The position numbers and the translations under genes were made by a program. This document shows positions 9,427 to 31,246 of a stretch of DNA of 64,000 bases, one piece after another. Each line of letters begins with the position of its first letter. Positions within the stretch are counted from its first letter, which is position 1. Below the pieces are notes generated by a model. The model saw nothing but the letters and a program-made list of their open reading frames with translations. It had not been told where the DNA came from and did no database searches. Origin of the DNA: an uncultured Actinomycetota bacterium (GTDB lineage: Bacteria; Actinomycetota; Geothermincolia; Geothermincolales; RBG-13-55-18); assembly GCA_964462595.1 (NCBI GenBank), contig CAYWXM010000023.1, forward strand, positions 71,543 through 135,542. The letters run 5' to 3'.

Positions 9427-10133
9427 CTGACGGCAGCCAAAAGCACCATCCCGGCCGTCTCTGTTCTCAACACGTTGTATCCCAGGGTAACGGGTTTTGC
9501 TCCCATGCCTGAAAGCAGTTCCCTCTCCTCGCTCGTGAATCCTCCCTCCGGGCCTATGACCAGCGCCAGGTCGCTCGGCCTCTTTGCTCCCAGTGCCTCT
9601 GCGGTCTTCGCCCCACCTTCCTCATCGGCAAATAACGAGGTTTCGAACCCCTTGAGCAGCTGCAGCGCATCTTCCCAGACGGCGACATCATCGATACGGG
9701 GAAGGAAAGGCCTTCCAGCGATACGGGCTGTTTCCAGCGCTATCCTGCGCCACCTATCCATGCGCCCGTTCAAGGATCCGTGCGGCCTGGAGGCACGCGC
9801 GCTTAAAAAGGGCTTCACGGAAGATGCCCCCAATTCCACGCTTAACTGCACGACGATATCCATCTTCGTGCCGCCTGGAAGGGCTTGAAAGATATGCATG
9901 CGTGGGCTCTCGTCCTCTATCATGATCCTGTCGTCCACGGCAACCGTTGTGTGGGTTGGAGTTATACCCATGATGGTGCCGCGTCCGGCAAGTCCCCTGC
10001 CGTCCAGCAGTATGACGCCCTCTCCGACCCGCATCCTGAGCACTCTGCTGGCGTGATGGTGATCTCCGCCCTCCAAGGTCAGGCGTTCCGCCCTTAGATC
10101 CTGCGTGGAAACATAGAACCTGGAAGTGGTCAA
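9405..10133 (-). CDS. rsmE: 16S rRNA (uracil1498-N3)-methyltransferase RsmE
   Basis: 242-aa ORF with the RsmE PUA-like N-terminus and SPOUT C-terminus (LVIGPEGGFT). It overlaps dnaJ by 4 nt. Confidence 0.85.
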   Translation of the reverse strand: MTTSRFYVSTQDLRAERLTLEGGDHHHASRVLRMRVGEGVILLDGRGLAGRGTIMGITPTHTTVAVDDRIMIEDESPRMHIFQALPGGTKMDIVVQLSVELGASSVKPFLSARASRPHGSLNGRMDRWRRIALETARIAGRPFLPRIDDVAVWEDALQLLKGFETSLFADEEGGAKTAEALGAKRPSDLALVIGPEGGFTSEERELLSGMGAKPVTLGYNVLRTETAGMVLLAAVRCHYGLL

Positions 10134-11239: not shown

Positions 11240-11260
11240 CTTTGCTTTATTTCGCCTCTC

Positions 11261-12289: not shown

Positions 12290-12316
12290 TTAGCACTCTC
12301 CTCCTTAGAGTGCTAC
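12290..12316 (-). promoter_or_regulatory. CIRCE operator (HrcA binding site), TTAGCACTC-N9-GAGTGCTAc
   Basis: The plus strand reads ttagcactc-tcctcctta-gagtgcta, a perfect 9-bp inverted repeat with a 9-nt spacer that directly abuts the hrcA ATG at 12287-12289. On the coding strand the spacer reads TAAGGAGGA, which is the Shine-Dalgarno. Confidence 0.85.
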
Positions 12317-12325
12317 CCCAATATT

Positions 12326-12355
12326 AAAGTATCGGTTCTCGCCGCCATGCGTCAA
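12326..12355 (-). promoter_or_regulatory. putative sigma-A-type promoter for hrcA-dnaJ (TTGACG-N18-TACTTT)
   Basis: The reverse strand reads cTTGACGcatggcggcgagaaccgaTACTTTaatatt just upstream of CIRCE. The assignment is by eye only. Confidence 0.3.
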
Positions 12356-13461
12356 GCGGGAAGGAGCTCCAATATCACCGTATTCGAAACAAGCATGCCA
12401 CGTCCGGTGAGGCGGATGCGTCCCGTATCCCTGTGCAGCAGGCCAAGGTCCTCGAGCTCATAAAGCCGGTCTCCGTGGACGTCGAGCATGCTGTCCGGCA
12501 CGCCAAGGACGGTCCTCAAGCCCAGCATTATCCTTTCCTTGCGTTCTTCCGCTTTGCCTATATACTCGCATCCCTCGATGGCGGATATGCCCCGCGTAAT
12601 CCTGCGCATGTAATCTAAGAGGGAAAGCACGTTATTGAAGCGGCAACCCCCGACGAAAGAGTAGGCGCCGGCCCCCACGCCCAGGTACTCTTCGCGTTCC
12701 CAGTAAGCCAGGTTGTGGCGGCTGCGATGTCCGGGAAGGCAGAAGTTGGATATCTCGTAATGCTCGTAGCCTGCTTCCCGCAGTTCTTCGCAGGCCGCCA
12801 GGTACTGTTCCGCCGCTTCGTCCTCGTCTGGAAGCGCGAGTTCCCCCCTCTGGATGGCTCTTGACATCCGTGACCTTCCCGACAGGGTAAGCGCGTAAAG
12901 GCTTATGTGATGGACACCTGCTCCTATGACCTTGCGCAGCCCCTGCAACAGCGTTTCCTTATCCATACCCGGCAATCCGAACATCAGGTCCACGGACACG
13001 GATAAAACACCGCTTCCAAGCGCATCCTTTATGGCCATCATGGCTTTCGCGGCATCGTGCAACCTTCCCAGTCTTACCAGCGAGGGATCGTGCAGCGACT
13101 GCACGCCCACACTTATGCGATTGACGCCTCCCGTCCGAGCGGCTGCGTAATCCCCGGCTTTCCAGGTGGCCGGGTTTACCTCCACGGTGGTCTCTGCATC
13201 GTCGCTCAAGCCAAACCGGGAACCTATCCCGCCTAAAAGTTCCGATATCTCCACCCCGCTGAGGGTGGAAGGCGTGCCGCCTCCCAGGTAAACGGACCTC
13301 AGCCCTCTCTTTTCTTCGCCCATCAGCTCTGCCCAGGCGGATATCTCCGAAAGAAGGGCGCACATGTACTCGCGCATGCGGCGGCCGTCGCACACCCGCG
13401 AGTTGAAATCGCAATAAGAACAGCGGGAGATGCAGAAAGGCCAGTGAACGTAAAGCCTCAC
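12352..13461 (-). CDS. hemW: radical-SAM heme chaperone HemW (oxygen-independent coproporphyrinogen-III-oxidase-like)
   Basis: It has the CxxxCxxC radical-SAM motif ([12 protein letters not shown]) and the HemW/HemN-like C-terminus. The long ORF extends to 13608 through the lepA 3' end. The likely real start is the GTG at 13459-13461, which overlaps the lepA TGA (a GTGA junction). Confidence 0.85.
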
Positions 13462-15272
13462 TTTCCGCCCTCCTCCCTGGTGACCCTGAGCGCGGATATG
13501 AAGGCTTCCTGGGGAATCTCGACCTTGCCCACCATCTTCATGCGTTTTTTCCCCTCTTTCTGCTTCTGAAGCAGCTTCTTCTTCCTGGTGATGTCGCCGC
13601 CGTAGCATTTGGCCAGCACGTCCTTGCGCTTGGCCTTTATCGTCTCCCGCGCCACCACCCTGCCGCCTATGGCCGCCTGTATCGGTACGTCGAAGAGCTG
13701 CCGGGGGATGAGTTCCCGCAGACGTTGCGTGATACGCCTTCCGTAGTCGTAAGCGCGGCCCCTATCCACTATGGACGAAAAGGCATCTATTGGCTCCCCG
13801 TTGATGAGTATGTCCAGTTTTACCAGGTTACCCGGAAGAAATCCTGCGTGTTCGTAATCCAGGGAAGCATAACCCCTGCTGCGGGATTTCAACTGGTCGT
13901 AGAAATCGACCACGATCTCCGCCAGAGGCAAGCGGCAGCGTATCTCCACCCGGCGCCCGGAGAGGTAGGCCAAGTCATGGAATATCCCCCTCCTCTCCTT
14001 CACCAGCTCGAGCATGACGCCCATGTAGTCCGGAGGGACCAGTATGGTCGCCTGCACGTACGGCTCGCGCATCTCGCTCAAGGTGGCCGCGTCGGGCATA
14101 TCCGAGGGGTTACGCACGTAGGTTACCGTTCCTTCCCTCTCCTCGACCTCATATACGACGTTGGGGGCGGTTATGACCAGGTCGAGGCCGTATTCCCTCT
14201 CCAGCCTCTCCTGCACTATCTCCATGTGCAGCAGACCGAGAAACCCGCAGCGGTACCCGAAACCCAGCGCCTTGGAGGTCTCCTTGGCGAAGGTGAGGGC
14301 GGCTTCGTTAAGCTTCAATCTTTCCAGGGCGTCGCCCAAGTCGGTGAAATCGTCCGAATCCACCGGGTATATTCCGGCGAACACCATAGGTTTGGGCTCG
14401 AGATATCCGGGCAGCGGCCCGGAAGCGGGGTTATCCCTGCCGGTCACCGTGTCCCCGACCTTGATCCTGGTGACGTCCTTGATGCCGGTGATGATGTAAC
14501 CGACCTCCCCCGCCTCCAGGATGCCGGTGGAGATCATGTCTGGTGAGAAGTACCCCACCTCGTCTATCTCCACCGCCTTCCCCTCCACCATGAAACGGGC
14601 TTTCATGCCCTTGCGGACCACGCCCTCTGCCACGCGCACGAAGGCCACCACGCCGCGGTAGAGGTCGTAGGTGGAGTCGAAGACCAGCGCGCGCAGCGGC
14701 AGCCCGGTCTCAGCCGGGGGCGGCGGCACGCGCCCGATTATCTCCCCCAGCAACTCCTCCACGCCCTCCCCCGTCTTGGCCGATACCGCCATGACCTCCG
14801 CCGGGTCTATGCCGAGCAGGTCAGCCACCTCCATGGCGCTGTCCTCGAAGTCCGCGCTGGGGAGATCTATCTTGTTGACCACCGGGATCACGGTGAGCCC
14901 GGCCTCCACGGCCAGGTAGGCATTGCCGACGGTCTGGGCCTCCACGCCCTGCGACGCGTCCACCAGCAGCACGGCTCCCTCGCAGGCGGCCAGGCTGCGC
15001 GAGACCTCGTAGGAAAAGTCCACATGGCCCGGCGTGTCGATGAGGTTGAGCTGGAATTCTTCCTCTCCCGCGGGCGCATACCGCATGCGCACCGCCTGGG
15101 CCTTGATGGTGATGCCTCGCTCGCGCTCGAGATCCATACGGTCCAGGTACTGGTCCGCCATCTTCTGGTGCGGCACCGTCTGCGTTATCTCGAGGAACCT
15201 GTCAGCCAGCGTGGACTTGCCGTGGTCTATATGCGCGATGATGCAGAAATTGCGTATTCTCTTTTCCTCCAT
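13458..15272 (-). CDS. lepA: translation elongation factor 4 (LepA)
   Basis: 604-aa ORF with the GTPase G1 motif AHIDHGKST and a full-length LepA-specific C-terminal domain. Confidence 0.95.
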
Positions 15273-15535
15273 ATATATACACCTCGGTCATTATCGCATA
15301 TTAATTCGCGTTTGAGTTACGGCTCGATTACCTTTGGACAGGCTTCTCTGCCGGAGCGGTGGTCATGCCGCTTCCGGCGCTGAACCCCTTAAGTTTGCGC
15401 TCAGGATCAAGTCCCGCAATTACCGGGATTTATAATGATCGAACCGACCGTATGACATCCGGAGACGTATAAGTGGTAACGACTCGCCTACTTATGCTAC
15501 AATTTGCCCTGTTTGCGGAAAGGAGGGAAAATAAC

Positions 15536-15799
15536 TTGCCTAATATCAAACAGCAGGAAAAGCGCATGAGGCAGGCGGAGAAGAGGCGCGTGCGCAATAA
15601 GTCGCGCAAGTCGGAGATAAAGACATACATCGGGCGTTTCGAAGCCGCGCTGCAGCGAGGAGACCGCGAAGAAAGCACGGAATTCCTGAACAAGGCAGTC
15701 AGGGCGCTGGACAAGGCGGCCAGCGACGGAATCATCCACAGGAACAACGCCGCCAACCATAAGTCTCGTCTCCTGGCCAAATACAACAAGACCCTCTGA
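15536..15799 (+). CDS. rpsT: 30S ribosomal protein S20
   Basis: It reads PNIKQQEKRMRQAEKRRVRNKSRKSEIKTYI..., the typical S20 sequence. The probable TTG start at 15536 is preceded by GAAAGGAGGG. The listed ORF (from 15473) has an implausible N-terminal extension. Confidence 0.85.
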   Translation: MPNIKQQEKRMRQAEKRRVRNKSRKSEIKTYIGRFEAALQRGDREESTEFLNKAVRALDKAASDGIIHRNNAANHKSRLLAKYNKTL

Positions 15800-15808
15800 A
15801 CGAGCCCT

Positions 15809-15833
15809 GAACCTTCGCGGCCTCGCAAGGTTC
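15809..15833 (+). terminator. possible rpsT terminator hairpin (GAACCTT-N11-AAGGTTC)
   Basis: A 7-bp inverted repeat lies 10 nt after the rpsT stop, followed by the partially T-containing ccgggtatattt. The U-tract is weak. Confidence 0.3.
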
Positions 15834-15988
15834 CGGCCGGGTATATTTCCACGTACTATCTCCATCCATTTTGATAATCGGGCGTGGATGCGTTTCGGCC
15901 TGGTGCAGGCCAGATAAATCGATCATCCGGGTCATTACCCTTGTTCTTTCAACCGGGAAACAGAGTAACAGTAATCAATGACCGTCCT

Positions 15989-18403
15989 TCAGCGCAGTCT
16001 TGCCCCCAACCTTTCGCCCAGGGCGGCGATGATCCCCTCGTAAGTAGAGCGCACCTCCTCGTCCCTCAGGGTACGGTCCAGGGCGTAGAAGGAGAGGCTG
16101 TAGGCCAGGCTCTTGCTGCCGGCATCGAGCTGCTCGCCGCGGTAGAGGTCGAAGAGCCGCACCTCCCGCAGCAGATCCCCGCCATGCTCCTTGATTACCC
16201 CCTCCACATCACCTTCGCATACGGCATCGTCCACCACTATCGCCAGGTCCATCTGGATGGAGGGAAAGCGCGGTATCTCCTCATAAGGTACGGGCTCCAG
16301 GGCGGCTTTTATCAGGTTTTCCAGTTCTATCTCGAGCACGGCCGTGTTCTCGGGAAGGTCCGCCTCAGAGGCGATCCGCGGATGAATCATACCCAGCCAG
16401 CCCGAATCCCTGCCGTTGATGTTTACAACGCACGATTGTGCGGGGTGCAGGAATGGCAGGGATTTTCTGTCCAGGGATACAGACCTGACGTGAAGAGATG
16501 ACGCCAGCTTCTCCAGTATTCCCTTGGCGGTGAAGAAGTCCGCATCTTCCGCATCCGAGTACCACTGCTTGGGGGTCCACATCCCGGCGAGCGCACAGCA
16601 CAGCTTCTGAGGCTCAGCGGGAAGCACCTCCTCCGTCCGCGGGATGAACGCCCTCCCAATCTCGAAGAAAAGCGTCCCGGTAACCTGACGGTTGAGGTTG
16701 AAACGCACCGCCTCCAGCAGCCCAGGAAGCAGCGTGGGGCGCATCACCGACATCTCCTCGCTTATGGGATTGCGCAGACCTATGCACGCGGTCGGTATAT
16801 ATTCCCTGGCGGGATCCAGGATATCAAGCCAACGAGGGGAGATAAAAGCATTTGAAATGGCCTCGTGCAGTCCCATGCCAGCCAGGATGCGCGCGATCTC
16901 GCGGCGTTTTACCTGTTGCGGCGTCAGCGACCCGATATTGTGTTGAGTGCACGGCAGCGTGGACCTTATCCTCCCGTAGCCATGTAGGCGGGCTACCTCC
17001 TCTACCAGGTCTATCTCCCTCCCGAGATCGGCTCGGAATGTGGGCACCGTAGCCTCGATGATCTCCTCGTCCAGGCCCCCTCCGGCAATCCGCGCATCCA
17101 GCTCGATGGAGCGAAGGTGTGAGGCCATCTCCTCGCCTGTTATATCCGCGCCGATTAGCCGGGCGGTTCTTTTCACCCTGAGCTTAATGCGCACGGGCTC
17201 GATAATTCTGGCGCGTGCGTCCACCGCTCCGGGCATTACAGAACCACCGGCAATTTCCTGCATGAGGAATGCAGCCCGGTCCGCAGCACGCACGCATCCT
17301 CCCGGGTCAACTCCCCTCTCGAAACGATAGGAGGCCTCAGAGGTAAGGTCCTGCATCCTGGCGGTGCGCATTATGTTGGCCGGGTCGAAATGTGCGGACT
17401 CCAGCAGTACCCTCGCGGTGGAAACGCTCACCTCGGTGTGTTCCCCTCCCATGACCCCGGCGAGCGCGACCGGCCCCGAGGGATCGCATATGAGTAGGTC
17501 ATCGCGGACGAGCTGCCTCTCCACGCCATCAAGGGTAGTCATCTTTTCGCCCTCCACCGCTCTCCTTACTATGATATGTCCCCGCTCCACCAGGTCCAGA
17601 TCGAATGCGTGCAGGGGCTGACCCATCTCGAGCATGACGTAGTTGGTCACGTCGACGATGTTGCAGATCGGGCGCACTCCCGCGGCCTGCAGCCTGCGCC
17701 GCATCCACCAGGGAGATGGAGCGATACGGATCCCCTCGATGACCCTGGCTACATAACGGGAGCACAGGTCACCGTCCTCTATTTCAACGCGCACGGTTTC
17801 CGTTGCCTCCGCGCCCACCTCCAGCAATTCAAATGCGGGCCTCCTTAGCTTCCGGCCCGTGAGTGCCGCTACCTCCCGTGCGATGCCCAGCATAGATAGG
17901 CAGTCGGGACGGTTTGGGGTTATTTCCAGGTCCAGAACCGTATCACTCATCCCCAGCACTTCGGACAGGATGGCACCCGCCCGTGCTCCCTCCTCCAGTA
18001 TCATGATGCCCTCCGCTTCCTCCGATATCCCCAGCTCCTTCTCGGAGAGCAGCATGCCTCGCGATGCGATGCCGCGTATTGTCGCCTCCGTTATCGGAGT
18101 GCCGTCGGGAAGGCTGCTTCCCGGCGTTGCAACGGGCACGAAGATATCCGGACGCACGTTGGGGGCACCGCAGACGATGTCCGCCACTTCTTTTCCCAGG
18201 TCCACCTGGCACAAAGACAGCCTGTCCGCGGCGGGGTGGGGTTTTACCTCGAGCACGTGCCCCACGACGAAGCCGTCAAGGGCAGCCCCCAATTCCTCAA
18301 CACCCTCGACGGCGGTTCCGGAGTCGGTCAGCATTTCCGCCAGTTCCAGGGCGCTCCTTGTAATATCGATATATTCCGCCAGCCATTCAAGAGAAACGCG
18401 CAT
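15989..18403 (-). CDS. pheT: phenylalanine--tRNA ligase beta subunit
   Basis: 804-aa ORF with the tRNA-binding N-terminal domain, B3/4, B5 and C-terminal FDX-ACB domains. Confidence 0.95.
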   Translation of the reverse strand: MRVSLEWLAEYIDITRSALELAEMLTDSGTAVEGVEELGAALDGFVVGHVLEVKPHPAADRLSLCQVDLGKEVADIVCGAPNVRPDIFVPVATPGSSLPDGTPITEATIRGIASRGMLLSEKELGISEEAEGIMILEEGARAGAILSEVLGMSDTVLDLEITPNRPDCLSMLGIAREVAALTGRKLRRPAFELLEVGAEATETVRVEIEDGDLCSRYVARVIEGIRIAPSPWWMRRRLQAAGVRPICNIVDVTNYVMLEMGQPLHAFDLDLVERGHIIVRRAVEGEKMTTLDGVERQLVRDDLLICDPSGPVALAGVMGGEHTEVSVSTARVLLESAHFDPANIMRTARMQDLTSEASYRFERGVDPGGCVRAADRAAFLMQEIAGGSVMPGAVDARARIIEPVRIKLRVKRTARLIGADITGEEMASHLRSIELDARIAGGGLDEEIIEATVPTFRADLGREIDLVEEVARLHGYGRIRSTLPCTQHNIGSLTPQQVKRREIARILAGMGLHEAISNAFISPRWLDILDPAREYIPTACIGLRNPISEEMSVMRPTLLPGLLEAVRFNLNRQVTGTLFFEIGRAFIPRTEEVLPAEPQKLCCALAGMWTPKQWYSDAEDADFFTAKGILEKLASSLHVRSVSLDRKSLPFLHPAQSCVVNINGRDSGWLGMIHPRIASEADLPENTAVLEIELENLIKAALEPVPYEEIPRFPSIQMDLAIVVDDAVCEGDVEGVIKEHGGDLLREVRLFDLYRGEQLDAGSKSLAYSLSFYALDRTLRDEEVRSTYEGIIAALGERLGARLR

Positions 18404-20762: not shown

Positions 20763-20960
20763 TCAGCCCTGCCGCAACATCTTTCTCACGCTGGGGACGT
20801 CGCTTTTCGCCACCTCGGCCTTGGAGCGGTAGGAGCGTTTACGGGTAGGACTCTTCTTGGAAAGAAGGTGGCTGCCGTATCCCTTCCTTCTTCGCAGTTT
20901 GCCTCCTCCGGTTATCTCAAACCTCTTGGCCGCTCCCCGGTGTGTCTTCATTTTTGGCAT
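20763..20960 (-). CDS. rpmI: 50S ribosomal protein L35
   Basis: 65-aa ORF reading [14 protein letters not shown]... Confidence 0.9.
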
Positions 20961-21492
20961 TCTTTCCTCCGTCTTTTTTAATCGCCGGCAACGGCGCCAT
21001 GATCATCTGCATGTTCCGTCCGTCGAGCTTGGGCATCGATTCCACTGTCCCTAGTTCCACCAGCTCTTCGGCCAGTTGCTGCAGAAGATTCCTTCCGAGT
21101 TCCGTGTGGCTCATCTCTCTGCCGCGAAACATTATCGTTACCTTGACCTTGAACCCGGAACTCAGGAATCGCTCTATGTGTTTTCTCTTGATCTCGTAAT
21201 CGTGCCTGTCGATCTTCGGGCGCAGTTTCATCTCCTTGTACGTAACCACGCTTTGTTTCTTGCGCGCCTCCTTCATCTTCACTGTCTGCTCATAGCGATA
21301 CTTGCCGTAATCCATGATCTTGCAGACCGGGGGTTGTGCCTGCGGTGCCACCTCGACCAGATCCAGGTCAAGCTCTTCGGCCATAGCCAGGGCTTCGTCT
21401 ATGCTTTTGATGCCTATCTGGTTGCCCTCCGGCCCTACGAGGCGCACCTCTCTCGCCCTGATCCCCTCGTTAATGCGCGCGTTCTTGTCTAT
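20917..21492 (-). CDS. infC: translation initiation factor IF-3
   Basis: It contains [24 protein letters not shown]...[15 protein letters not shown], the IF-3 sequence. The SD AAGGAGGG is followed 7 nt later by an in-frame ATA codon (21490-21492), which is the probable non-AUG start. The listed ORF begins at an upstream TTG (21513) that contains the SD. The 3' end overlaps the rpmI start. Confidence 0.85.
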
Positions 21493-21510
21493 CTGGCATC
21501 CCTCCTTAAT

Positions 21511-21545
21511 CAAAACAAAAGGATAGCGGTTTCTCCCCGCTATCC
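21511..21545 (-). terminator. intrinsic-terminator-like hairpin in the infC leader (candidate L20-responsive attenuator)
   Basis: On the coding strand: GGATAGCGG-ggagaaa-CCGCTATCC (perfect 9-bp stem) followed directly by TTTTGTTTTG and then the infC SD. Confidence 0.5.
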
Positions 21546-21674
21546 ACGGGATCCTGCTCCCAGGAACCCTGGCGGCATCGTATCCGCAGGGTGAGAAGCC
21601 GAACCGCTTCTTCTTCGCTTATATTGCGTTTTCAAGCAGAAAGTATAGTGTATCCTCCAGCTTCAGGCAACTTC

Positions 21675-23897
21675 TCATCCTGCAGCCGCCTTACCCGAGT
21701 CGCCCGTAAAGCCTGCCCGCGAATCCCTTTTAATACCGTATAGGGGAAGGGTTATGTTGAAGGTGGTGCCTCCGCCCTTGGAGCTGTTCGCCCATATCTC
21801 ACCCCCGTGGGCGTTTACCAGCTGCCTGGTGATGGAAAGCCCCAGCCCGGTGCCGCTCTGGTGCCGTGTCGAGGATGAGTCCACCTGATAGAATTTATCG
21901 AAAATCCTCGGGAGATCCTGCGCAGAGATACCGATACCGTTGTCCGATATCTTTATCAGGCAATCCGTTACGGAAGATGTCGCGCTAACCGTGACCTCTC
22001 CGTTTTCCGGGGTGAACTTGATCGCGTTGTGTATGAGGTTCATGAACACCTGGCTCAAGCGCTCGCTGTCGCCGCTGATCAGGGGCATGTCAGCCGGTAT
22101 AGCCAACCTCAGGGTGATGCCCTTCTCTTTTGTGAGGTTGTCCAACTGCTGTGCCACTCCCCCGACAACCCCCGAGAGCTTCACGGGCTCGCTTCGTACT
22201 TTTATCGTCCCCGCCTCGATCCTTGACAGATCCAGGAGATCGTTAATGAGCATGGTGAGCGATTCGGACTGCCTCAACACAACGTCCAGGTAATGCTTCT
22301 GCTTTTCATTGACCCTGCCCACCCTCTCGGCCGCGAGCAGCCTCACGAATCCCTTGATGGAAGTCAGCGGGGTCTTCAGCTCGTGGGACACGATAGATAT
22401 GAAGTCGGACTTCAAGCGGTCCAGCTCGATGAAGTCCGTGATATCGTGAAGCAGTATCACGCCCCCGCCGACTTTTCCTTCGCTGTCTTTCAGGGGAACC
22501 CATATGACGTTGAATATTATCGGTGGCTCCAGCTCCAGGACCATCTCGCTCCTCAGGCCTTCCCCTCCATGCAATACCCTTTCCAGCGCCTTGTGGCAGG
22601 ATACCTCCTTGAACTTCGTGCCACAACGCAATCGCTCAAAGATCTCGATAAGCGGCAGCTGGTAATCCTCCTGCTTCAAACCCATAAGGCGCGATATGAA
22701 CGGGTTTGCCAGTACCAGCCTTCCTCCCTCGTCGATTACCATAAGGCCGTCGGTGAGGCTGTTGATGATAGTCTCTATCTTCGTCTTGTCCTCCAGGGTC
22801 GTACGATACAGGGCGGCCTTTTCCAGTGCCATTGCAGCCTCACTCGACATGGTTAGAAGGATCCTGGCGGAGTCGTCGTCGAAAGAATCTCTTTTTTTCG
22901 AGAAACAGCTCAAGACGCCTATCACGCTCGAGCTGGCGAATAAAGGCACGGCGATCATCGAGGAATATCCTGACTCCTGCAGGTATGGACGGAAACGAGG
23001 GTCCTCTTCGATATCCTTGAGGATGACAGGAAGCACGGCCGAAGCAGACATATAAAGGGGGTTGTCCTTTTCCTGGCCCATCAGGCCGTTAATACGGTTC
23101 TCCTCCAGATTACGGTGCGCCTTAGGGTTCAAAAGCCCCTGCTGGTCGAGCAGAGCCACGGCAATGGCATCGTTTTCGACCAGCTCAGCTGCATTTTCGA
23201 TGAGTACGAAAAGCATCTCCTCTTCGTCTAGCGTAGACGCGAATTTGAGTGATGTGGCGTACAGGGTGGACATCTCCCTGCGCTTGGTGTCGGCCTGGTC
23301 GTAAAGGTTGGTCAGATCCTGCTTTTCCCTTTCCTGCTCGCGTGCCTTGTTGATCACGAAAGACCCCCCCAGCGCTATTATCATGTATATGGGGACGGCC
23401 ATGGCCATGTTCTTGAGGGTTTCGAGGGAAATGGACTCGTAAACAAGGGGCGCGAAATAGACCAGGCAGGTCACGGCGGTTATCAACATCGTCTCCAGCA
23501 GCTCGAAATAAGCGGAAGAGAATATGATCACCGCCAGGAAGAGCAGGGAAATACTGCTCTCGATACCGCCGGCCAGGTATACCATCACCGCTATCAGGAT
23601 GTCTGTCGCCAGGAGAAGGGCGAAATAGGCGATGGGATGGTAACCCTCGTAAGGGAAATAGCGGTTTCCGAGGAACACGAGAACCGACAGGGCGATGAAA
23701 ACGTAAAAAACGACAGACCTGCTGCGCTCGGAATATGGCAGGACGAAGAGCATGGTCGCTACGATAATGGTCAGCCAGAATATCGATGCTATGAAGCGTG
23801 TGGAAGACAGAAGCATGCGCACTCCCTCGCGCTGTTCGCCGCTCTCCGTCTTCGAATACTCCTGTCTTCGGGAAGAACTCGAGTTCATCTGCCTCAA
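21675..23897 (-). CDS. sensor histidine kinase with multi-pass membrane N-terminal domain, GAF, PAS, HisKA and HATPase_c
   Basis: 740-aa ORF. The N-terminus of about 190 aa is strongly hydrophobic (about 6 TM). It has the H-box SHELKTPLTSIKGF and N, G1 and G2 boxes (NLIHNAIKF, DNGIGI, GTGLGL). Confidence 0.85.
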   Translation of the reverse strand: MRQMNSSSSRRQEYSKTESGEQREGVRMLLSSTRFIASIFWLTIIVATMLFVLPYSERSRSVVFYVFIALSVLVFLGNRYFPYEGYHPIAYFALLLATDILIAVMVYLAGGIESSISLLFLAVIIFSSAYFELLETMLITAVTCLVYFAPLVYESISLETLKNMAMAVPIYMIIALGGSFVINKAREQEREKQDLTNLYDQADTKRREMSTLYATSLKFASTLDEEEMLFVLIENAAELVENDAIAVALLDQQGLLNPKAHRNLEENRINGLMGQEKDNPLYMSASAVLPVILKDIEEDPRFRPYLQESGYSSMIAVPLFASSSVIGVLSCFSKKRDSFDDDSARILLTMSSEAAMALEKAALYRTTLEDKTKIETIINSLTDGLMVIDEGGRLVLANPFISRLMGLKQEDYQLPLIEIFERLRCGTKFKEVSCHKALERVLHGGEGLRSEMVLELEPPIIFNVIWVPLKDSEGKVGGGVILLHDITDFIELDRLKSDFISIVSHELKTPLTSIKGFVRLLAAERVGRVNEKQKHYLDVVLRQSESLTMLINDLLDLSRIEAGTIKVRSEPVKLSGVVGGVAQQLDNLTKEKGITLRLAIPADMPLISGDSERLSQVFMNLIHNAIKFTPENGEVTVSATSSVTDCLIKISDNGIGISAQDLPRIFDKFYQVDSSSTRHQSGTGLGLSITRQLVNAHGGEIWANSSKGGGTTFNITLPLYGIKRDSRAGFTGDSGKAAAG

Positions 23898-23915
23898 GAC
23901 CTCGCTGTAATCCTT

Positions 23916-25022
23916 TTAATCCCTGCGCCTCCGGTCGAAAACAAGATTACTGCCTTGCATGTTCTTGGCATATTTCTTCAGTTCCGCCGCGATCTGCGCC
24001 ACCTTGCCCGGATGGTCCAAAGAGCGGTAAGTGTTATGAACTACGGCGATGCTGATGGTCATGATAGGAAAATTGTTTACCTTACCCTGCCGGTCGGTGC
24101 TGATGATATATCCCTTTTCGCGGTCATCCGGTGCGTACTGTGAAGGTATACGCGTATCGAACAACTTGATTATCTCCTGGGATATCAGGGGTGCTCGTTC
24201 CATCTCGGTGATCACGATGAAGTCGTCTCCTCCGATATGACCGACGAAATCATCCTTGACGCCGAACTTCTCCAGAGCATCCATGATAGCCTTCGTAGTC
24301 AGCTTTATGACCTCGCTCCCCGCCAGAAAGCCATAGCGGTCGTTGTAGGCCTTGAAGTCGTCTAAGTCGATGTAGCAGACGGCGAACTTCGCTCCCGTCT
24401 TTATACGCGCTTCTATGACTTCCTCAAGGGCTCGATTACCGGGAAGACCGGTTAACGGGCTTGCTTCACCGTCGCGGACAGACCGTCTGAGGTGCATGTT
24501 TATCCTGGCCTCGAGCTCCAGGGGATCAAATGGTTTGGTCATGTAATCGTCCGCACCGGTTTCCATACCCTTTATCTTGTCTTCCAGCATGCCCTTCGCT
24601 GTAAGCAGGATGATGGGGATATGGCTGGTCAAAGCCTCCCCTCGTAACCTCAGGCAGACCTCGAGGCCATCGAGATCGGGCATCATCACGTCCAGCACGA
24701 TTATATCCGGCCTATCCGTCTCGCATATCTGAAGCGCTTCCCTTCCATCTCTTGCCACTACGGGGTCGTATTTCCCGTCGCCAAGTGTCTCCAGGATAAG
24801 CTCGCGGATGTATGGATCGTCGTCCACCACGAGGATCTTGTGTCTCTTGGTCCTCTCCAGGGTTTCCGCCGTTTCACCCCTCAGTATCTCGTCGAACAAT
24901 TTTTCACCTCCGACACGGATCCCCACCTCTCCAGCGCGCACCGCTATGCATCGCAACCATGGAGTCCCCACGAAAAACATTGACGCATGGTCTCCTTCAC
25001 CTGATGACCGGATCACCCCCAT
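23916..25022 (-). CDS. response regulator with receiver domain fused to GGDEF-type diguanylate cyclase domain (GGDDF variant)
   Basis: REC (ILVVDDDP...IIVLDVMMPDLDG...TAKG) followed by a GGDEF domain (TGLPGNRALE...YIDLDDFKAYND...GHIGGDDFIV). The 5' end overlaps the upstream HD-GYP gene, so the real start is probably internal (around MFFVG or later). Confidence 0.85.
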   Translation of the reverse strand: MGVIRSSGEGDHASMFFVGTPWLRCIAVRAGEVGIRVGGEKLFDEILRGETAETLERTKRHKILVVDDDPYIRELILETLGDGKYDPVVARDGREALQICETDRPDIIVLDVMMPDLDGLEVCLRLRGEALTSHIPIILLTAKGMLEDKIKGMETGADDYMTKPFDPLELEARINMHLRRSVRDGEASPLTGLPGNRALEEVIEARIKTGAKFAVCYIDLDDFKAYNDRYGFLAGSEVIKLTTKAIMDALEKFGVKDDFVGHIGGDDFIVITEMERAPLISQEIIKLFDTRIPSQYAPDDREKGYIISTDRQGKVNNFPIMTISIAVVHNTYRSLDHPGKVAQIAAELKKYAKNMQGSNLVFDRRRRD

Positions 25023-26997
25023 GCCTGTCGAGGATTTCCATGAATATGGATACTATCTCCGGATCGAACTGGCCTCCGGAGTTACGCTTCAGTTCGTCTA
25101 TCGCCTTTTCCAGCGGAAGTGCGCGACGGTAAGGGCGGTCGGATCGCATGGCCTCGAAGGCGTCCGCCACGGAAAGGATGCGCGCGCACAGCGGTATCCC
25201 GTTTCCCTTGAGACCATCCGGATATCCCTTGCCGTCAAAGCGTTCGTGGTGATGAAGGATAATGGGCCTGGGGCCCTGGAGGAACTCCACCGGCTCAACG
25301 ATGCTGTCTCCCAGCGCCGGGTGCGTCTTCACGTGAGAATATTCCTCGTTCGTAAGGCTCCCCGGCTTGTTGAGAACCCTTCCGGCTATCCCTATCTTAC
25401 CGATATCATGCAGGGTGGCCGCGTATTTGAGCTTCTGCTTATCCCTTTCTTCAAGGCACATGGTATCAGCGATCATCATCGCGTATTCCGTCACCCTTTC
25501 GGAATGGCCGTGTGTATATGGGTCCTTTACCTCTATCGCTTTGGCCAGAGCCTTCACCGTGGAGAAATAGCTCTTTTCTATGTCTTCGTACAGGGCGGCG
25601 TTTTCTATGGCCATGGAAGCTTGTGCGGCGATAGCCCTTACCACCTCCACCTCATCCCTCTTCAGCCCAACTGCATATTTACAGGGATAGAAGAGCGCGA
25701 ATAGCCCCCTGAGTCTCTCCTTGGAGCTCAGGGGGAACATGGAGACCAGGCCCACCCCATGTTCGTTCATTACTTCCCCGGGAAGCAGGCAGGCGGCTTG
25801 CGAGGCAGGAAGGAAGACGGGATCGCCCCGCATCAAGGTTTCTACCTCCAGGTCCTGCAGGCCATCTACGGTGAATCCCGCCTCTGTTCCGCCGCTCCAA
25901 TGGCTTTCTTCTATGAAGCCGTAGTGAGCCGAGGGCTCGAATCTCTCCGCCTCCTCGTCGTGGAGGTAGATGATACACATGACAACGCCACAGAGGTCCA
26001 CGGTCATCTGTACGACCTGCTCCAGTATCTGGCTTATATCCAGGGTGGAATTGATAGCCCTGGTTATCTCCAGCAAAGCCACCGTCTCCTTGATCTTTCT
26101 CTGTTCCCGCTCGTGCAGATAAGCGTTTTCCAGGGCTACGGCCATCCGTCTGGCAAACCTGCTCGCAAGTTCCGCATCACCGGCCGTGAAATCCCCTCTT
26201 TCCTTTCCGGCCGCGATCATTATGAGTCCCGTAGTGCGACCTCTCACCAGCATGGGTATAAGCAGCGAGGCTGCCGCCTCGATCCTTCTCGTTTGTTCTC
26301 CCAGGAACGAATCCTCTTCTCCTGGAACCCACCGGTGCGGTTCCCCTTTATGCAGCAGATGATGTGCTGCGGCCTCGTCCAGCCGCATGCAGGATCCATC
26401 GTCTCCGTGCAGAGCCTTTTCGCCTCCCACTAACGTCAGGAACCGTGAGGCATCGACTTCGAACATGGCGGCGTATGGGATGCCAAGGAGCTTTTTCAAC
26501 CTGGCGAGCCCGATCTTTGTGAGCGTAGGAGGATCGAGTGTCGCCGCTATGGTATCCGGGAAAGCGTCTATCTCTCGCAGTTGCTGCGCCATGACTTCGC
26601 GCTTCCTTTCCTCGGCCTTCATGTAGGAGTCGAAGATCAGCGCTTGCGCTTTGAGCATGCCGCTGCTGATCCCGTTCAGGCCGAAGCAGTCATCGCCGCA
26701 CTTGAGCCTGTCCTGTACACCCGAGATCAGCGCTTTGACGAATACGCTTGCCGCGCTCCAGTCGAGGCCGCACTGCGACAGACTAACGGCCAGCTCGCTC
26801 AGCCCCTTTCCCGCTGAGGATATCTCCTTCTCGTCCTGCTCCAAGGCGTAATCGAAGAGCATGGCCAATACCCGGTGGCAATCGATTCCTTTATTCGCCA
26901 TTAGGCTATGTTCTGCGGTCGATAGCGCCTGCAAGGCGTGGTCCAGCACGTCGTCGCGCTCGCCTGCTAGCAGGGTTTTTTCTGACCAGATGGTCAT
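24997..26997 (-). CDS. GAF-GAF-HD-GYP c-di-GMP phosphodiesterase
   Basis: 666-aa ORF with two GAF-like regions and a C-terminal HD-GYP domain (HDIGKIGI...HHHERFDGKGYPDGLKG). Confidence 0.85.
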   Translation of the reverse strand: MTIWSEKTLLAGERDDVLDHALQALSTAEHSLMANKGIDCHRVLAMLFDYALEQDEKEISSAGKGLSELAVSLSQCGLDWSAASVFVKALISGVQDRLKCGDDCFGLNGISSGMLKAQALIFDSYMKAEERKREVMAQQLREIDAFPDTIAATLDPPTLTKIGLARLKKLLGIPYAAMFEVDASRFLTLVGGEKALHGDDGSCMRLDEAAAHHLLHKGEPHRWVPGEEDSFLGEQTRRIEAAASLLIPMLVRGRTTGLIMIAAGKERGDFTAGDAELASRFARRMAVALENAYLHEREQRKIKETVALLEITRAINSTLDISQILEQVVQMTVDLCGVVMCIIYLHDEEAERFEPSAHYGFIEESHWSGGTEAGFTVDGLQDLEVETLMRGDPVFLPASQAACLLPGEVMNEHGVGLVSMFPLSSKERLRGLFALFYPCKYAVGLKRDEVEVVRAIAAQASMAIENAALYEDIEKSYFSTVKALAKAIEVKDPYTHGHSERVTEYAMMIADTMCLEERDKQKLKYAATLHDIGKIGIAGRVLNKPGSLTNEEYSHVKTHPALGDSIVEPVEFLQGPRPIILHHHERFDGKGYPDGLKGNGIPLCARILSVADAFEAMRSDRPYRRALPLEKAIDELKRNSGGQFDPEIVSIFMEILDRHGGDPVIR

Positions 26998-27529
26998 AGT
27001 GGCTTTATTCTCCTGTAACCTACAAAAGCGCCGATGCTTCCATAGAGATTATCGGCAAGGCAGCAATCGTGTTTTAACTTTGCGGCTTATATTACTGTAG
27101 GGTAGCTTCAACGGCGCCGTAGATGGCAAACGGCGGTGCCGTCTACCCCCTCATATTCCTGCCTGCCGTGGTTTTAGAGAAGGGGCATTACCCATAGAGC
27201 CTTTGGTTATATCAGGGGTTTGATTTTTCCAGTCAAGGTCATGTCGGGGTGGCCATGGCTGCTTACCGCCAGCGCGGAGCGTACAGCCAGGGCCTTTCCC
27301 GGTAAAGGAATCCCCTCGTCAGCACGGACAATTACTCGCTAAAGGGCTGCCAGATCGAGTTCGATACTCGTGAAGGGGTTTATCCGTCCATATTGTATCA
27401 AGCAGGACAGGCGTTGCTTTTGCCCGTTCCCCCGGGATGGAAAGGCATCCGCAAGGGGAGCCTCTTAGGCCGTGGCCCTGGAGCTGAAATGTGGGGATGG
27501 GGTAGCGTGCTGCCCTCTTCCGCCGCGCC

Positions 27530-27994
27530 CTATTTTATCTCTTTCAGCAGATTGCCCATCTCCACTGCGGTAATTGCGGCTTCCCAGCCCTTATTGCCCT
27601 GCTTGGCTCCGGCTCTATCGACCGCCTGCTCAATCGTGTCCGCGGTAATGACGCCGAAAACAGCTGGAATGCCCCTGTCCAGGCTTACCCTGGCTACACC
27701 CTTTGAGACCTCGGAGGCCACGTAATCGAAATGCGGCGTCGAGCCGCGTATAACGGCTCCGAGGCATATCACGGCATCATAGATTCCGCTTGCAGCAAGC
27801 TTGGACGCAACCAGGGGTATCTCGAACGCCCCGGGGACCCAGGCGATATCCACATTCTCCATGTCGGCATCATGTCGCTTGAGGGCATCCAGGGCGCCGT
27901 CAAGCAATCGCGTGCTTATAAATTCGTTGAATCGCGCTACCACGATGGCGAATTTGAGCCCCGCTGCTACCAGGTGTCCCTCATAGGTCGGCAT
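27530..27994 (-). CDS. ribH: 6,7-dimethyl-8-ribityllumazine synthase
   Basis: 154-aa ORF with RFNEFI...GAFEIP...[18 protein letters not shown], the lumazine synthase signature. Confidence 0.95.
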
Positions 27995-28008
27995 TGCGTT
28001 CTCCTTTC

Positions 28009-29244
28009 CTAGAAATCAAGGATGTGGTTCAGTTTATCCTGTTTTGTCTTTAGATAGGCGTAATTATCCTCGCACGGTTCCACTATCAGGGGTATGCGTT
28101 CGACCACTTTCAGCCCGTATCCTTCCAGGCCGACCCTTTTAGCCGGGTTGTTGGTCATCAGCCTCATCGTCGTAAGCCCGAGATCGGACAGGATCTGCGC
28201 CCCGATGCCATAATCTCGCGCATCTGGCGGGAAGCCCAGTTCCAGATTCGCCTCGACGGTGTCCTTTCCGTTCTCCTGCAGCTCGTAGGCCTTCAGCTTG
28301 TGGGTAAGGCCGATGCCCCGGCCCTCGTGCCCGATGATATACAGGAAGACGCCTTCCCCTTCCTCTTCGATCATCTGCAGCGCCATGCGTAATTGCAGGC
28401 CACAATCGCAGCGCAAAGACAGAAACACGTCTCCGGTCAGGCATTCGGAGTGCACCCTTACCAGTACGTTTTCCTTCCCCTCGACGTCTCCTTTCACCAG
28501 GGCGATAAGGTTGCGCCCATCTATCAGCGATTCGTAACCTATGGCGCGAAATACGCCGAATACAGTGGGTAGGCGCACCTCGGCGATACGCCTTACGAGC
28601 GTCTCATAGCGATTTCTATATCGTATGAGGTCTTCGATGGTGACCATCTTCAGGCCGAACTTCTCTTTTATCTTCGCCAGTTGTGGTACGCGGGCCATGC
28701 TGCCGTCATCGTTCATGATCTCGCATATTACTCCAGCCGGGAAAAGGCCGGCCAGCCTGGACAGGTCCACCGCGGCCTCCGTGTGGCCTGCCCTGCGCAA
28801 TACCCCTCCGTCGCGAGCCCGCAGGGGGAACACATGCCCCGGCCTCGAGATATCCTCGGGCCTGGTTTCGGGGTCCAGTACCGCCTGGACTGTAACGGCA
28901 CGGTCGTAAGCTGAGATACCCGTGGTTATCTTCCCTTTGGCTCCTATGGATACGGTGAACGCCGTCTCGTGCGTGGAGGTGTTTTCCGGCACCATTGGAT
29001 GTATGTTCAGCTCGTCCAGCCGCTTTCCCACGCAGGGCATGCATATCAGGCCTCTTCCGTTCTTGGCCATGAAATTGATGGCTTCTGGAGTCACTCTTTC
29101 GGCCGCCATGAGGAAATCGCCCTCGTTCTCCCTGTCCTCGTCATCGACCACGATTATCAGCTTCCCCTCGCGGATGTCCTCTATGGCCTCCTCTATCGAG
29201 TTGAAAGGTCTCCCTTCGTTTACGCTCTGCTCTTCTTTCATCAC
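28009..29244 (-). CDS. ribBA: bifunctional 3,4-dihydroxy-2-butanone-4-phosphate synthase / GTP cyclohydrolase II
   Basis: 411-aa ORF with a DHBP synthase N-half ([10 protein letters not shown]) and a GTP cyclohydrolase II C-half (CDCGLQ zinc motif). Confidence 0.95.
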
Positions 29245-29903
29245 ATAAAACCTCCTTCAACGAGCTTCTCGCGCAAAGACGCATCGCTTTCCCCGGTATA
29301 ATCTGTGCCGTTGATGCCGCGCCTCATATAGCTGTAAACGTATTTCGCCAGTATATCCACCTCGAGGTTAACCTCATCGCCGGGCTTTATCCCCCCCAGG
29401 TTAGTGTTTTCAATGGTATGGGGAATAGCGGCTACGCTGACCCTGCCGTCCCCCAAAGCGCTGACGGTAAGGCTTATCCCGTTAACCGCCACCGACCCTT
29501 TCTCGACCAGATAGCCCATGACCTGCGGGGGGGCGGAGAAAGAATACACACAACCTTGCCCGGATCTTTTTATCTCCGTCGCCTTGCCTACGCCGTCAAC
29601 GTGTCCCTGCACTATGTGCCCCCCCAGACGTTCTCCCAGGCTGAGGGCTCTCTCCAGGTTTACCGCAGAGCCTCTGTCGAGACCCCCCAGGTTGGAGCGC
29701 TCGAGGCTTTCCTCGGATATATCCGAGACGAATTCCCCCCTGTTTTTCTCCACCACGGTCAGGCAGACGCCGTTTACCGCCACCGAATCGCCTATCTTTA
29801 GCTCGTCCCATATCGAGGAGCACGAAACGGATATCCTCGCCCCCGGCGCGAGCATCCTGATATCCCTCACGGTTCCGATCTCCTCGATTATCCCGGTGAA
29901 CAA
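29241..29903 (-). CDS. ribE: riboflavin synthase alpha subunit
   Basis: It contains [11 protein letters not shown] and a second lumazine-binding repeat ([10 protein letters not shown]). The probable TTG start gives (M)FTGIIEE. The listed ORF has a 65-aa R/G-rich extension running through ribD. Confidence 0.9.
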
Positions 29904-29905
29904 CT

Positions 29906-31057
29906 TCAACCCCTCTCTATCATATCCGCCTCCAGGAGCAGGTCTTCTCCCAGGCAACTCGCTTTCCTCCACCTCATGCGCATCCCTTCTTCCGGATCGA
30001 ATACTTCCCTTCCCTCTATCCAAGATCGCGCCTTCTCGTCCCCGAATATCTTCGGGGCCACGAAAAGGGATAGTCTGTCCACCAGGCCGCGTTCGCAAAG
30101 AGCGCTTACCAGCGTAGGGCCTCCTTCAACCAGGAGTTGAGCCACCCCCCTCTTTCCCAGCACCAGCAGCAGCTCATCGAGGTCCACTCTCTTACCGCTG
30201 CCCCCTATAACCTCGACTTCAACTCCCCGGTCTCGAAGCACTCCTGCCTTGAAACGGTCATGCTGGTGGGTGGTAGCCACCATGACCTGTGGCTCTTTTC
30301 CTTGTGCAATCTCGCATTCCAGGGGGATGGAAAGCATCGAATCCACTATCACTCTCAACGGGGGCTTCGCTCCACGCATGGGCACCATGCGCACGGTAAG
30401 CTCTGGGTCGTCGGCTTCAACGGTACCTTTTCCCACCATTACCGCGTCGCTCTCGCGGCGCATGGCATGCACCCTTCTCCGCGCTTTTTCCCCGCTTATC
30501 CATCTCGATGCTCCTCCTCGAGCCGCAACCTTTCCATCCGCCGTGATAGCCATCTTCACAATGACCAGCGGTATCCCGGTCCTTATATATTTTTCGTAAG
30601 CCTCGTTAAGGCGCGACGACTCGCCGCCCATAAGCCCGCTTTGCACAGTCAATCCAGCCTCTCTCAGTCTCTCCATGCCCCCGCCTTTTACACCCGTGTT
30701 GGGGTCCGTCGCTGCAATCACCACCCTTTCTATCCCCGCGGCAATGATCGCCTCCGTGCACGGCGGAGTCCTGCCGTGGTGGTTGCATGGCTCCAGGGAA
30801 ACGTACATCGTGGCTCCGCAGGCATCTTCTCCCGCCTGCTTCAGCGCCTCCACCTCAGCGTGCGCAGTGTATGGCCCGCGGTGATACCCTTTTCCCAGGA
30901 TATTCCCGTTCTTAACGACTAGCGCTCCCACCATGGGGTTCGGGTGCGCCATGCCCTTTCCTCTGCCCGCAAGGGAGATGGCTTTCCTCATGAAGACCCT
31001 GTCCTGCGAGCTTAATCCCGTATCCACTTCCGCTCCCCGTGAATCCAAACACTTCAT
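29906..31057 (-). CDS. ribD: bifunctional diaminohydroxyphosphoribosylaminopyrimidine deaminase / 5-amino-6-(5-phosphoribosylamino)uracil reductase
   Basis: It has a deaminase motif (HAEVEAL...PCNHHGRTPPC) and a reductase C-half. The start is ambiguous between the ATG at 31055-31057 (GGAG 4 nt upstream) and the ATG at about 30991. The listed ORF (to 31144) runs into the riboswitch. Confidence 0.9.
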   Translation of the reverse strand: MKCLDSRGAEVDTGLSSQDRVFMRKAISLAGRGKGMAHPNPMVGALVVKNGNILGKGYHRGPYTAHAEVEALKQAGEDACGATMYVSLEPCNHHGRTPPCTEAIIAAGIERVVIAATDPNTGVKGGGMERLREAGLTVQSGLMGGESSRLNEAYEKYIRTGIPLVIVKMAITADGKVAARGGASRWISGEKARRRVHAMRRESDAVMVGKGTVEADDPELTVRMVPMRGAKPPLRVIVDSMLSIPLECEIAQGKEPQVMVATTHQHDRFKAGVLRDRGVEVEVIGGSGKRVDLDELLLVLGKRGVAQLLVEGGPTLVSALCERGLVDRLSLFVAPKIFGDEKARSWIEGREVFDPEEGMRMRWRKASCLGEDLLLEADMIERG

Positions 31058-31077
31058 GTCTCCGTGTGTCTCCGCCC

Positions 31078-31246
31078 TGAAATAATAAAGGGCACCGGGG
31101 AGAATACCCGGCGCCCAAAATGAACGCCTCAGGTCTTCTCCCATCCGGACTCTAACCGTCGGTGCCGGAATTTCGCCGGCTCTGCCTTGCGGCTCGCGGA
31201 CTTTAACCGCCGGTCGGGGATTTCACCCTGCCCCGAAGACCGTTAA
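31078..31246 (-). promoter_or_regulatory. FMN riboswitch (RFN element) with intrinsic terminator expression platform, upstream of ribD
   Basis: The reverse strand reads GGTCTTCGGGGCAGGGTGAAATCCCCGACCGGCGGTTAAAGTCCGCGAGCC...GCCGGCGAAATTCCGGCACCGACGGTTAGAGTCCGGATGGGAGAAGACC, with closing P1 GGTCTTC/GAAGACC. Then GGGCGCCGGG-tattctc-CCCGGTGCCC follows, and then CTTTATTATTTCA. Confidence 0.9.

Follow-up and report, generated by a model that had tools for sequence, protein, structure and literature searches.

Genes and borders of the locus

The window analysed here is a stretch of 64,000 nucleotides (nt) from an uncultured actinobacterium of the class Candidatus Geothermincolia (assembly GCA_964462595.1, contig CAYWXM010000023.1, positions 71,543 to 135,542). 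Between its riboflavin operon and infC lie three signalling genes, encoding a candidate phosphodiesterase of the HD-GYP type, a response regulator with a variant GGDEF domain and a membrane histidine kinase. An initial annotation had described them as a self-contained circuit of cyclic diguanylate (c-di-GMP) inserted into a rearranged or accessory slot. The comparison of genomes shows that the module is conserved and core to its lineage, not inserted, and the active site of the cyclase domain disagrees with the names 'diguanylate cyclase' and 'PleD family' given to the regulator by annotation pipelines. We see an even chance that this is a lineage-conserved two-component module making and breaking a cyclic dinucleotide with a Hypr-like cyclase. 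The module architecture is that of an ordinary two-component cyclic-dinucleotide module and is nothing categorically new. The features of the locus are as follows (aa, amino acids; TM, transmembrane segments; FMN, flavin mononucleotide).

24997..26997, minus strand: GAF-GAF-HD-GYP phosphodiesterase gene, 666 aa, assigned by Pfam and motifs.
23916..24899, minus strand: REC-GGDDF response regulator gene with a variant cyclase domain, 327 aa from the likely start TTG 24899.
21675..23888, minus strand: 6TM-GAF-PAS-HisKA-HATPase_c membrane histidine kinase gene, 737 aa from the probable start ATG 23888.
26998..27529, minus strand: spacer of 532 nt between ribH and the HD-GYP gene, probably with the promoter of the module.
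21509..21621, minus strand: boundary to the infC-rpmI-rplT operon, with a weak L20-leader-like element, a hairpin and a T-run.
27530..31244, minus strand: ribD-ribE-ribBA-ribH operon (Pfam) and FMN riboswitch (115 bits), the conserved neighbour of the REC-GGDDF gene.
20917..21513, minus strand: infC (Pfam IF3_N and IF3_C), the conserved downstream neighbour.

The rib genes proper occupy 27530-31144, and the FMN riboswitch (Rfam) 31129-31244, upstream of the module. Downstream of it are infC, rpmI, rplT, a SpoU methylase gene, pheS and pheT (Pfam). Much of the first description stands: three co-oriented open reading frames (ORFs) of the minus strand between ribDE(BA)H and infC, with the architectures GAF-GAF-HD-GYP, REC plus a GGDEF-like domain, and membrane GAF-PAS kinase, all borne out by Pfam, and thrS some 34 kb from infC, at 55819-57738. 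Pfam confirms both the HD-GYP and the GGDEF domain, but the cyclase motif is GGDDF and not GGDEF.

The gene borders needed correction. The longest regulator ORF (23916-25022, 368 aa from ATG 25022) overlaps the HD-GYP gene by 26 nt, close to the overlap of about 25 nt first reported, but this is probably a start-codon artefact. Because TTG 24899 is preceded by GGAGGTG at a 5-nt spacer and fits the M/L-FDE with which the 327-aa homologues begin, and because the 41 residues ahead of it are not conserved in the alignment of homologues, translation likely begins there, which leaves a gap of 97 nt after the HD-GYP gene. In close relatives the regulator gene is called at 327 aa, and the gap is 75-105 nt. 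The kinase gene, said to lie 19 nt downstream, begins either 18 nt (TTG 23897) or 27 nt (ATG 23888) past the regulator stop codon. Its longest ORF (21675-23897) has 740 aa; ATG 23888, as called in locus L001, is probably the true start.

The spacer upstream of the module is unusually long; its equivalents in relatives have 42-450 nt. It contains no ORF, and a riboswitch or other RNA was considered for it and rejected, as it has no Rfam match and no exceptional folding (z-score -1.4). A promoter-like site at 27077-27048 is weak evidence, since such sites are no commoner in this region than in shuffled sequence. The Rfam search of 21400-27600, at the gathering score and at E<=1, yielded nothing but a sub-threshold L20-leader-like match ahead of infC (RF00558, 27.8 bits versus a gathering score of 58.7, E 0.024). 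A terminator-like hairpin followed by a T-run is situated between the kinase gene and infC (21545-21521). The hairpin and the L20-leader-like match are consistent with infC-rpmI-rplT being a separate unit from the module.

Conservation of the locus

Homologues of the regulator with 53-87% identity come from uncultured Actinomycetota. Two of them bear the names Candidatus Geothermincolales and Candidatus Anoxymicrobiaceae, which belong to the class Candidatus Geothermincolia, and an identical contig was found in a sample with the contig prefix MLSed, which we read as Mono Lake sediment. Synteny was analysed in ten distinct Candidatus Geothermincolia genomes (including the window, L004, L006, L007, L008, L009, L089, L090 and L091). 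The regulator gene adjoins the rib operon in all ten. The GAF-PAS kinase gene stands beside it, co-oriented, in nine (it is missing in L090), and the HD-GYP gene is found between ribH and this pair in six (the window, L004, L006, L089, L090, L091). On the far side of the module lies infC-rpmI-rplT in all genomes but L007 and L009. The orientation of the pair differs between genomes, and there are small insertions in L004 and L091.

The patchy HD-GYP gene (six of ten), the variable orientation of the pair and the extra genes in L004 and L091 would speak for the three genes being an accessory island that was acquired horizontally and sits in a rearranged slot. We consider such an island extremely improbable. 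It is already contradicted by the regulator gene, which stands at the rib operon in every Geothermincolia genome compared with protein identities of 55-87%, and by seven other Actinomycetota with the gene order rpe - REC-GGDDF - ribD - ribE - ribBA - ribH - infC - rplT - pheS (L014, L016, L017, L018, L021, L022 from Salinispora mooreana, L028). Moreover, the GC content of the module (0.53-0.57) is not anomalous in a window that is mostly at 0.52-0.60, and no mobility genes adjoin the module. The initial annotation had proposed this synteny comparison and had named conservation at this position in the lineage as what would speak against an accessory slot; essentially that was found. Nor did its expectation that infC should follow thrS hold, as ribH-infC is the recurrent arrangement in the actinobacterial genomes examined. 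The module is thus a conserved, core part of its lineage. Judging by the ten Geothermincolia and the seven other actinobacterial genomes, the rib-infC adjacency and the REC-GGDDF gene in the rpe-rib-infC block look ancestral in Actinomycetota. Placement between housekeeping operons is here no sign of insertion, and the rib linkage is conserved across Actinomycetota.

In the seven actinobacterial loci (about 9300-18000 in each) the REC-GGDDF protein has Asp at the base-recognition position described below, and no kinase gene is adjacent. The regulator gene starts 10-60 nt past rpe and is followed by a gap of 15-460 nt before ribD. A literature search found no study on the function of such an orphan REC-GGDDF regulator beside the riboflavin operon. 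One of the seven, L018, is a metagenome-assembled genome labelled 'uncultured Gammaproteobacteria', yet it has the actinobacterial order rpe-REC-GGDDF-rib-infC-rplT-pheS, and its infC and rplT products are 52-62% identical to those of the window; the contig may be mis-binned or mislabelled.

The response regulator and its cyclase domain

The regulator matches the Pfam families Response_reg (1e-29) and GGDEF (PF00990, 56.2 bits versus a cut-off of 23.8). The latter match spans only positions 5-91 of the 161 of the profile because the second half of the domain contains an insertion. In the receiver, D67, D68, D111, T141 and K163 (here and below, numbering of the longest ORF) are invariant in the lineage alignment. 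The fold is that of a cyclase: the AlphaFold2 model has a mean predicted local distance difference test score of 85 overall and above 90 in the cyclase domain, the top Foldseek matches of the model are WspR, PleD and DgcR (E 4e-24 to 2e-18), and hhalign aligns the domain with canonical GGDEF domains over 150 columns with a probability of 99.6.

The active site retains the metal and base ligands of canonical cyclases (D219, K224, N227, D228, D266, K353), with substitutions around them. Instead of the canonical motif [G/A/S]G[D/E]E[F/Y] the regulator has GGDDF. Of 120 homologues from the lineage, 119 carry the pattern GH[IV]GGDDF together with Ser236, and D266 likewise. Ser236 stands in the stretch NDRYGFLAGSEVIK and aligns with the guanine-reading Asp of the solved cyclases 4urg and 4yme (phmmer), as it does in the profile-profile alignment by hhalign. 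We take this Asp to be D344 of PleD. The family has Asp at the site of E371 of PleD, and GN and a hydrophobic residue at that of NRR. The RxxD inhibitory site (I-site) expected five residues before the motif is absent: the sequence there is VKDD-FVGHI-GGDDF, with no Arg, and the profile alignment places a three-residue insertion in this stretch.

Serine at the base-recognition site has precedents. Hypr enzymes are defined by Ser348 along with a third-position Asp in the motif, and Ser at position 348 is the determinant for the acceptance of ATP; these enzymes take other purine nucleoside triphosphates (NTPs) as well (PMC6456294). The regulator has the features of this class in the Ser/Thr position 348, in the third-position Asp (D266) and in Asn339.

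The GGDDF family

With the cyclase domain alone as the query, 1.84 billion representative proteins were searched. This gave 897 clusters (50% identity) at E<=1e-30, the best of which align end to end at 39-55% identity. The pattern GH[IVL]GGDDF occurs in 147 of the best 150 family representatives. Invariant or nearly so throughout the family are D219, F223, K224, N227, D228, H262, GGDDF, Y296, R311, K353, S358 and R365, and the regulator carries all traits of the clade: GHxGGDDF, the insertion Y296...R311, K353, S358 and the C-terminal DRR. The architectures include REC-GGDDF, REC-GGDDF-EAL, EAL-CBS-GGDDF, REC-GGDDF-MshEN, HAMP-GGDDF and fusions to hybrid kinases. Scanning genome contigs with the family alignment placed the clade in many phyla among the matches listed (at least 600), with one further Geothermincolia genome, L009, among them. 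A candidate REC-GGDDF-HD-GYP fusion, L047, was rejected and left out of the family, since its domain is a canonical GGDEF (162 bits over the full profile).

This clade is very large, yet barely studied: our literature search found functional data for two proteins with a GGDDF motif. One is GSU1937 of Geobacter sulfurreducens (TM-HAMP, 'diagnostic Ser348', GGDDF), the deletion of which lowers the activity of a reporter for cyclic guanosine-adenosine monophosphate (cGAMP), and the domain of which, fused to the receiver of GacA, made both cGAMP and c-di-GMP in E. coli (PMC8835794). The other is PA3258 (EAL-CBS-GGDDF), in which an apparent cyclase activity emerges upon inactivation of the EAL domain (PMC12900916); this argues for GGDDF being compatible with catalysis. 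The paper on GSU1937 is the only one found that describes an active GGDDF enzyme.

One possibility is that the GGDDF domain is catalytically dead and serves as a nucleotide-binding or protein-interaction output under control of phosphorylation. Its motif does differ from [GAS]G[DE]E[FY], it lacks two canonical arginines as well as the RxxD I-site, its Pfam match covers just half the profile, and PA3258 has no phenotype in P. aeruginosa screens. On the other hand, all 151 family sequences agree in the residues that bind metal and base, GSU1937 (PMC8835794) and PA3258 (PMC12900916) show activity, the GGDDF domain is the sole output domain of the regulator, and its gene is paired with that of a hydrolase having all catalytic motifs. 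We therefore regard a dead domain as improbable and treat the domain below as a candidate cyclase.

Position 236 is variable in the family. Among the 151 family sequences it is occupied by Asp in 106, by Asn in 23 and by Ser in 22. The actinobacterial genes from the rpe-rib block have Asp, and all Geothermincolia genes have Ser. In a rough, distance-based neighbour-joining tree, built without support values, the Ser group of Geothermincolia is monophyletic and lies among Asp-type sequences, apart from a Ser/Asn group of HAMP-type proteins. As the Ser groups are separate in this tree, the switch from Asp to Ser seems to have occurred independently in Geothermincolia; the derivation of their Ser type from that of Geobacter was considered and rejected for the same reason. 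Ser is fixed in the lineage while relatives from the same block keep Asp, which suggests selection for the change at the base-recognition site and provides a clean natural experiment on the evolution of cyclic-dinucleotide specificity.

These data bear on the scheme of the initial annotation, a plain c-di-GMP circuit in which the GGDDF domain is a pure diguanylate cyclase and the HD-GYP protein a c-di-GMP phosphodiesterase. It is a serious possibility, though we would not call it probable. The clade occurs in architectures typical of c-di-GMP metabolism (REC-GGDDF-EAL, EAL-CBS-GGDDF, REC-GGDDF-MshEN), Asp is the residue at position 236 in most of the family (106 of 151), position 197 is basic in the lineage, the GSU1937 fusion made c-di-GMP too (PMC8835794), and one cyclase with a D-to-S mutation continued to act purely as a diguanylate cyclase (PMC6456294). 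What speaks against this scheme is that Ser236 is fixed in 119 of the 120 lineage homologues against Asp in the same-block actinobacterial relatives, and that Ser at this site is the published determinant for ATP acceptance (PMC6456294).

The variant site might also make another product, such as cyclic diadenosine monophosphate (c-di-AMP), a linear dinucleotide or another purine species. The substrate-contact positions S236, H262, D267 and S358 all differ from canonical cyclases, the family-specific insertion has the invariant Y296 and R311, and Hypr enzymes do accept other purine NTPs (PMC6456294). However, the only characterised member of the family makes cGAMP and c-di-GMP (PMC8835794), and what is known of HD-GYP enzymes concerns c-di-GMP and cGAMP; such a product is hardly to be expected.

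The histidine kinase and the HD-GYP protein

In the kinase, Pfam finds a weak 6TM_PilS-like region followed by GAF, PAS, HisKA and HATPase_c. By its hydropathy profile, residues 25-180 include about six hydrophobic stretches joined by short loops. NCBIfam matches are confined to the cores of PnpS, WalK and PhoR, all below cut-offs. The H-box SHELKTP is intact. From the adjacency of the two genes in nine of ten genomes and the intact motifs, the kinase and the regulator are predicted to be a cognate two-component pair. In two loci from uncultured bacteria, L026 (1167-3581) and L027 (9513-11846), a gene directly following a REC-GGDDF gene encodes a fusion of HisKA-HATPase to HD-GYP, in L027 also with a GAF domain; such fusions tie the kinase, cyclase and HD-GYP functions together.

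The HD-GYP protein has a first region of about 150 residues without a recognised domain, two GAF domains and an HD_5/HD domain (Pfam, E 8.9e-42). Its best solved relatives are V-cGAP3 (5z7c, 5.8e-47) and PmGH (4mcw, 5.4e-41), with which the motifs HD (LHDIGK), HHHERFDGKGYP and RPYR align; the HHE and GYP (DGKGYP) motifs are intact. The protein is predicted to be an active phosphodiesterase. We take the Glu of the 'PET' motif of PmGH to be a ligand of its third metal. The residue aligned with it here is Tyr, and thus a binuclear site is likelier. RPYR stands in place of RPYK of PmGH, that is, of the guanine-contact motif Rxx(K/R), and V-cGAP3 also has RPYR. We considered this signature as an indicator of the product and rejected it, since RPYR is canonical and compatible with either c-di-GMP or cGAMP.

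Candidate mechanism and product

The following mechanism may be suggested. With its 6TM, GAF and PAS regions the kinase would sense a cue from the membrane or the cytoplasm, and it would autophosphorylate at the H-box histidine. The phosphate would then pass to D111 of the receiver (D70 in the 327-aa protein), as one may expect from the adjacency of the genes and the intact motifs. By analogy with PleD, WspR and DgcR, phosphorylation should cause the GGDDF domains to dimerise and to condense two purine NTPs. Because Ser occupies the site of the guanine-reading Asp and Asp the third motif position, a relaxed, Hypr-like purine specificity is predicted, and the domain would make both c-di-GMP and 3',3'-cGAMP, as reported for GSU1937. 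The GAF-regulated HD-GYP protein would hydrolyse this product, RPYR suiting either dinucleotide. As for the origin of the module, Geothermincolia may have shifted an ancestral REC-GGDDF gene to the ribH end, added the kinase and often the HD-GYP gene, and changed Asp to Ser.

The assignment of the cyclase as a Hypr-like promiscuous synthase of cGAMP and c-di-GMP, which is based on sequence comparison, is tentative, and we rate it a little short of an even chance. Several observations weigh against it. At the fourth place of the motif, where the general base is proposed to be, stands Asp267 instead of the Glu that characterises Hypr enzymes; GSU1937 has the same change, yet is active. R366 and R446 of PleD, which we take to correspond to H262 and S358, are phosphate-binding arginines, and both are replaced. 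Position 197 is basic (R/K/H) in 117 of 118 Geothermincolia homologues and, if it is equivalent to the cross-dimer Arg, would bias the product to c-di-GMP. In Hypr enzymes the residue that stacks across the dimer is not Arg (Tyr304 in GacA). By ungapped phmmer alignment and by hhalign, its position corresponds to Asn196; should Gly195 be an insertion, the helix-cap position in the model would put R/K/H197 at the cross-dimer site instead. Four of the ten genomes lack the HD-GYP gene at this locus, and one lacks the kinase gene. No GEMM-type riboswitch (Rfam) or other effector was found within the window. Where PmxA and Bd2325, both specific for cGAMP, carry Rxx(Q/N) (10.1101/600031), the HD-GYP protein has RPYR. 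Finally, ordinary cyclases mutated from D to S mostly lost activity or were still diguanylate cyclases, and hence Ser alone is no proof of cGAMP synthesis (PMC6456294).

Thus, of the complete make-and-break c-di-GMP circuit of the initial annotation, a kinase-controlled cyclic-dinucleotide circuit is plausible, as the pair or trio of genes recurs, whereas c-di-GMP as the product is uncertain. Nor is the module self-contained, because no effector gene lies in it. A further step, that Candidatus Geothermincolia use 3',3'-cGAMP or a mixture of cGAMP and c-di-GMP as a core second messenger, is doubtful at present. If true, it would extend GGDEF-based cGAMP signalling to Gram-positive bacteria, and it would mean a convergent re-tuning of base specificity inside a largely unstudied clade. 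The regulator is a concrete candidate for cGAMP signalling outside Proteobacteria.

Other features of the window

The window is transcribed on the minus strand except for very few genes; one of these is a gene for an EF-G-like GTPase (53000-55078, plus strand), where the GC skew is positive. The only clearly low-GC stretch is 60000-63000 (0.45-0.50 versus about 0.56). It contains two minus-strand ORFs, 60147-60959 and 61174-62499, and encodes a DUF4041 plus T5orf172/MUG113 protein and a 270-aa protein without a Pfam match; tRNA genes are at 59743-59813 and 62744-62816. This stretch has the appearance of a small islet, mobile or for defence, next to tRNA genes; in this window it is the true accessory candidate. 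Just past it, at the window edge, is a gene for a protein with a KaiC-like ATPase domain (63267-63989, minus strand; PF06745, 5.9e-42).

Two other genes may be related to nucleotide signalling. The protein encoded at 4468-6588 (minus strand) consists of 7TMR-HDED, 7TM-7TMR_HD and HD domains, presumably the architecture of the PgpH type, a c-di-AMP phosphodiesterase elsewhere. The 322-aa DHH-DHHA1 protein encoded at 46928-47896 (minus strand) resembles, as we assume, the NrnA type, which degrades short linear di- and oligonucleotides; it might finish the breakdown of the HD-GYP products.

Comparison with known systems

The closest characterised analogue of the cyclase is GSU1937. A G. sulfurreducens protein, P0370 (436 aa, TM-HAMP, with GHVGGDDF and KASEVIK), is 44% identical to the window domain over 181 residues without gaps. 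Besides GacA, no G. sulfurreducens GGDEF protein other than GSU1937 has the serine (PMC8835794), and for this reason we infer that P0370 is GSU1937, judging by organism, architecture and motifs and not by locus tag. The two cyclases share GH[IV]GGDDF, the Ser of the base site, the family insertion and the C-terminal motif, and neither has a fused EAL or HD-GYP domain. They differ in input, which is membrane-bound with HAMP in GSU1937 and a receiver here, and at position 197, which is Ile in GSU1937 and Arg, Lys or His in the lineage. Their serines are probably convergent, as the groups are apart in the rough neighbour-joining tree.

GacA (GSU1658), one of the Hypr GMP-AMP cyclases (PMC6456294), resembles the regulator in domain order, with a receiver followed by the cyclase, and in Ser348, Asn339 and the third-position Asp. 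Unlike the regulator, it possesses a functional RxxD I-site as well as GGDEF, whose Glu is the general base, and it lacks the insertion in the second half of the domain. The match to the GacA domain (6d9m, 1.4e-5) is weaker than that to an ordinary Thermotoga cyclase (4urg, 5e-12).

PleD, WspR and DgcR have the same fold and domain order, and phosphorylation-dependent dimerisation is expected by this likeness. However, their GG[DE]EF, Asp344, NRR, R366, R446 and RxxD I-site are all altered here. Proteins of the PA3258/RapA type share the GGDDF motif, and their architecture, EAL-CBS-GGDDF, also occurs among the close family representatives. Unlike in the regulator, their GGDDF domain is a secondary part of a multidomain phosphodiesterase. 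Finally, the HD-GYP protein is like PmGH and V-cGAP3 in its HD, HHE, GYP and RPY(K/R) motifs, and differs from them in the tandem GAF domains and the unassigned N-terminal region of about 150 residues.

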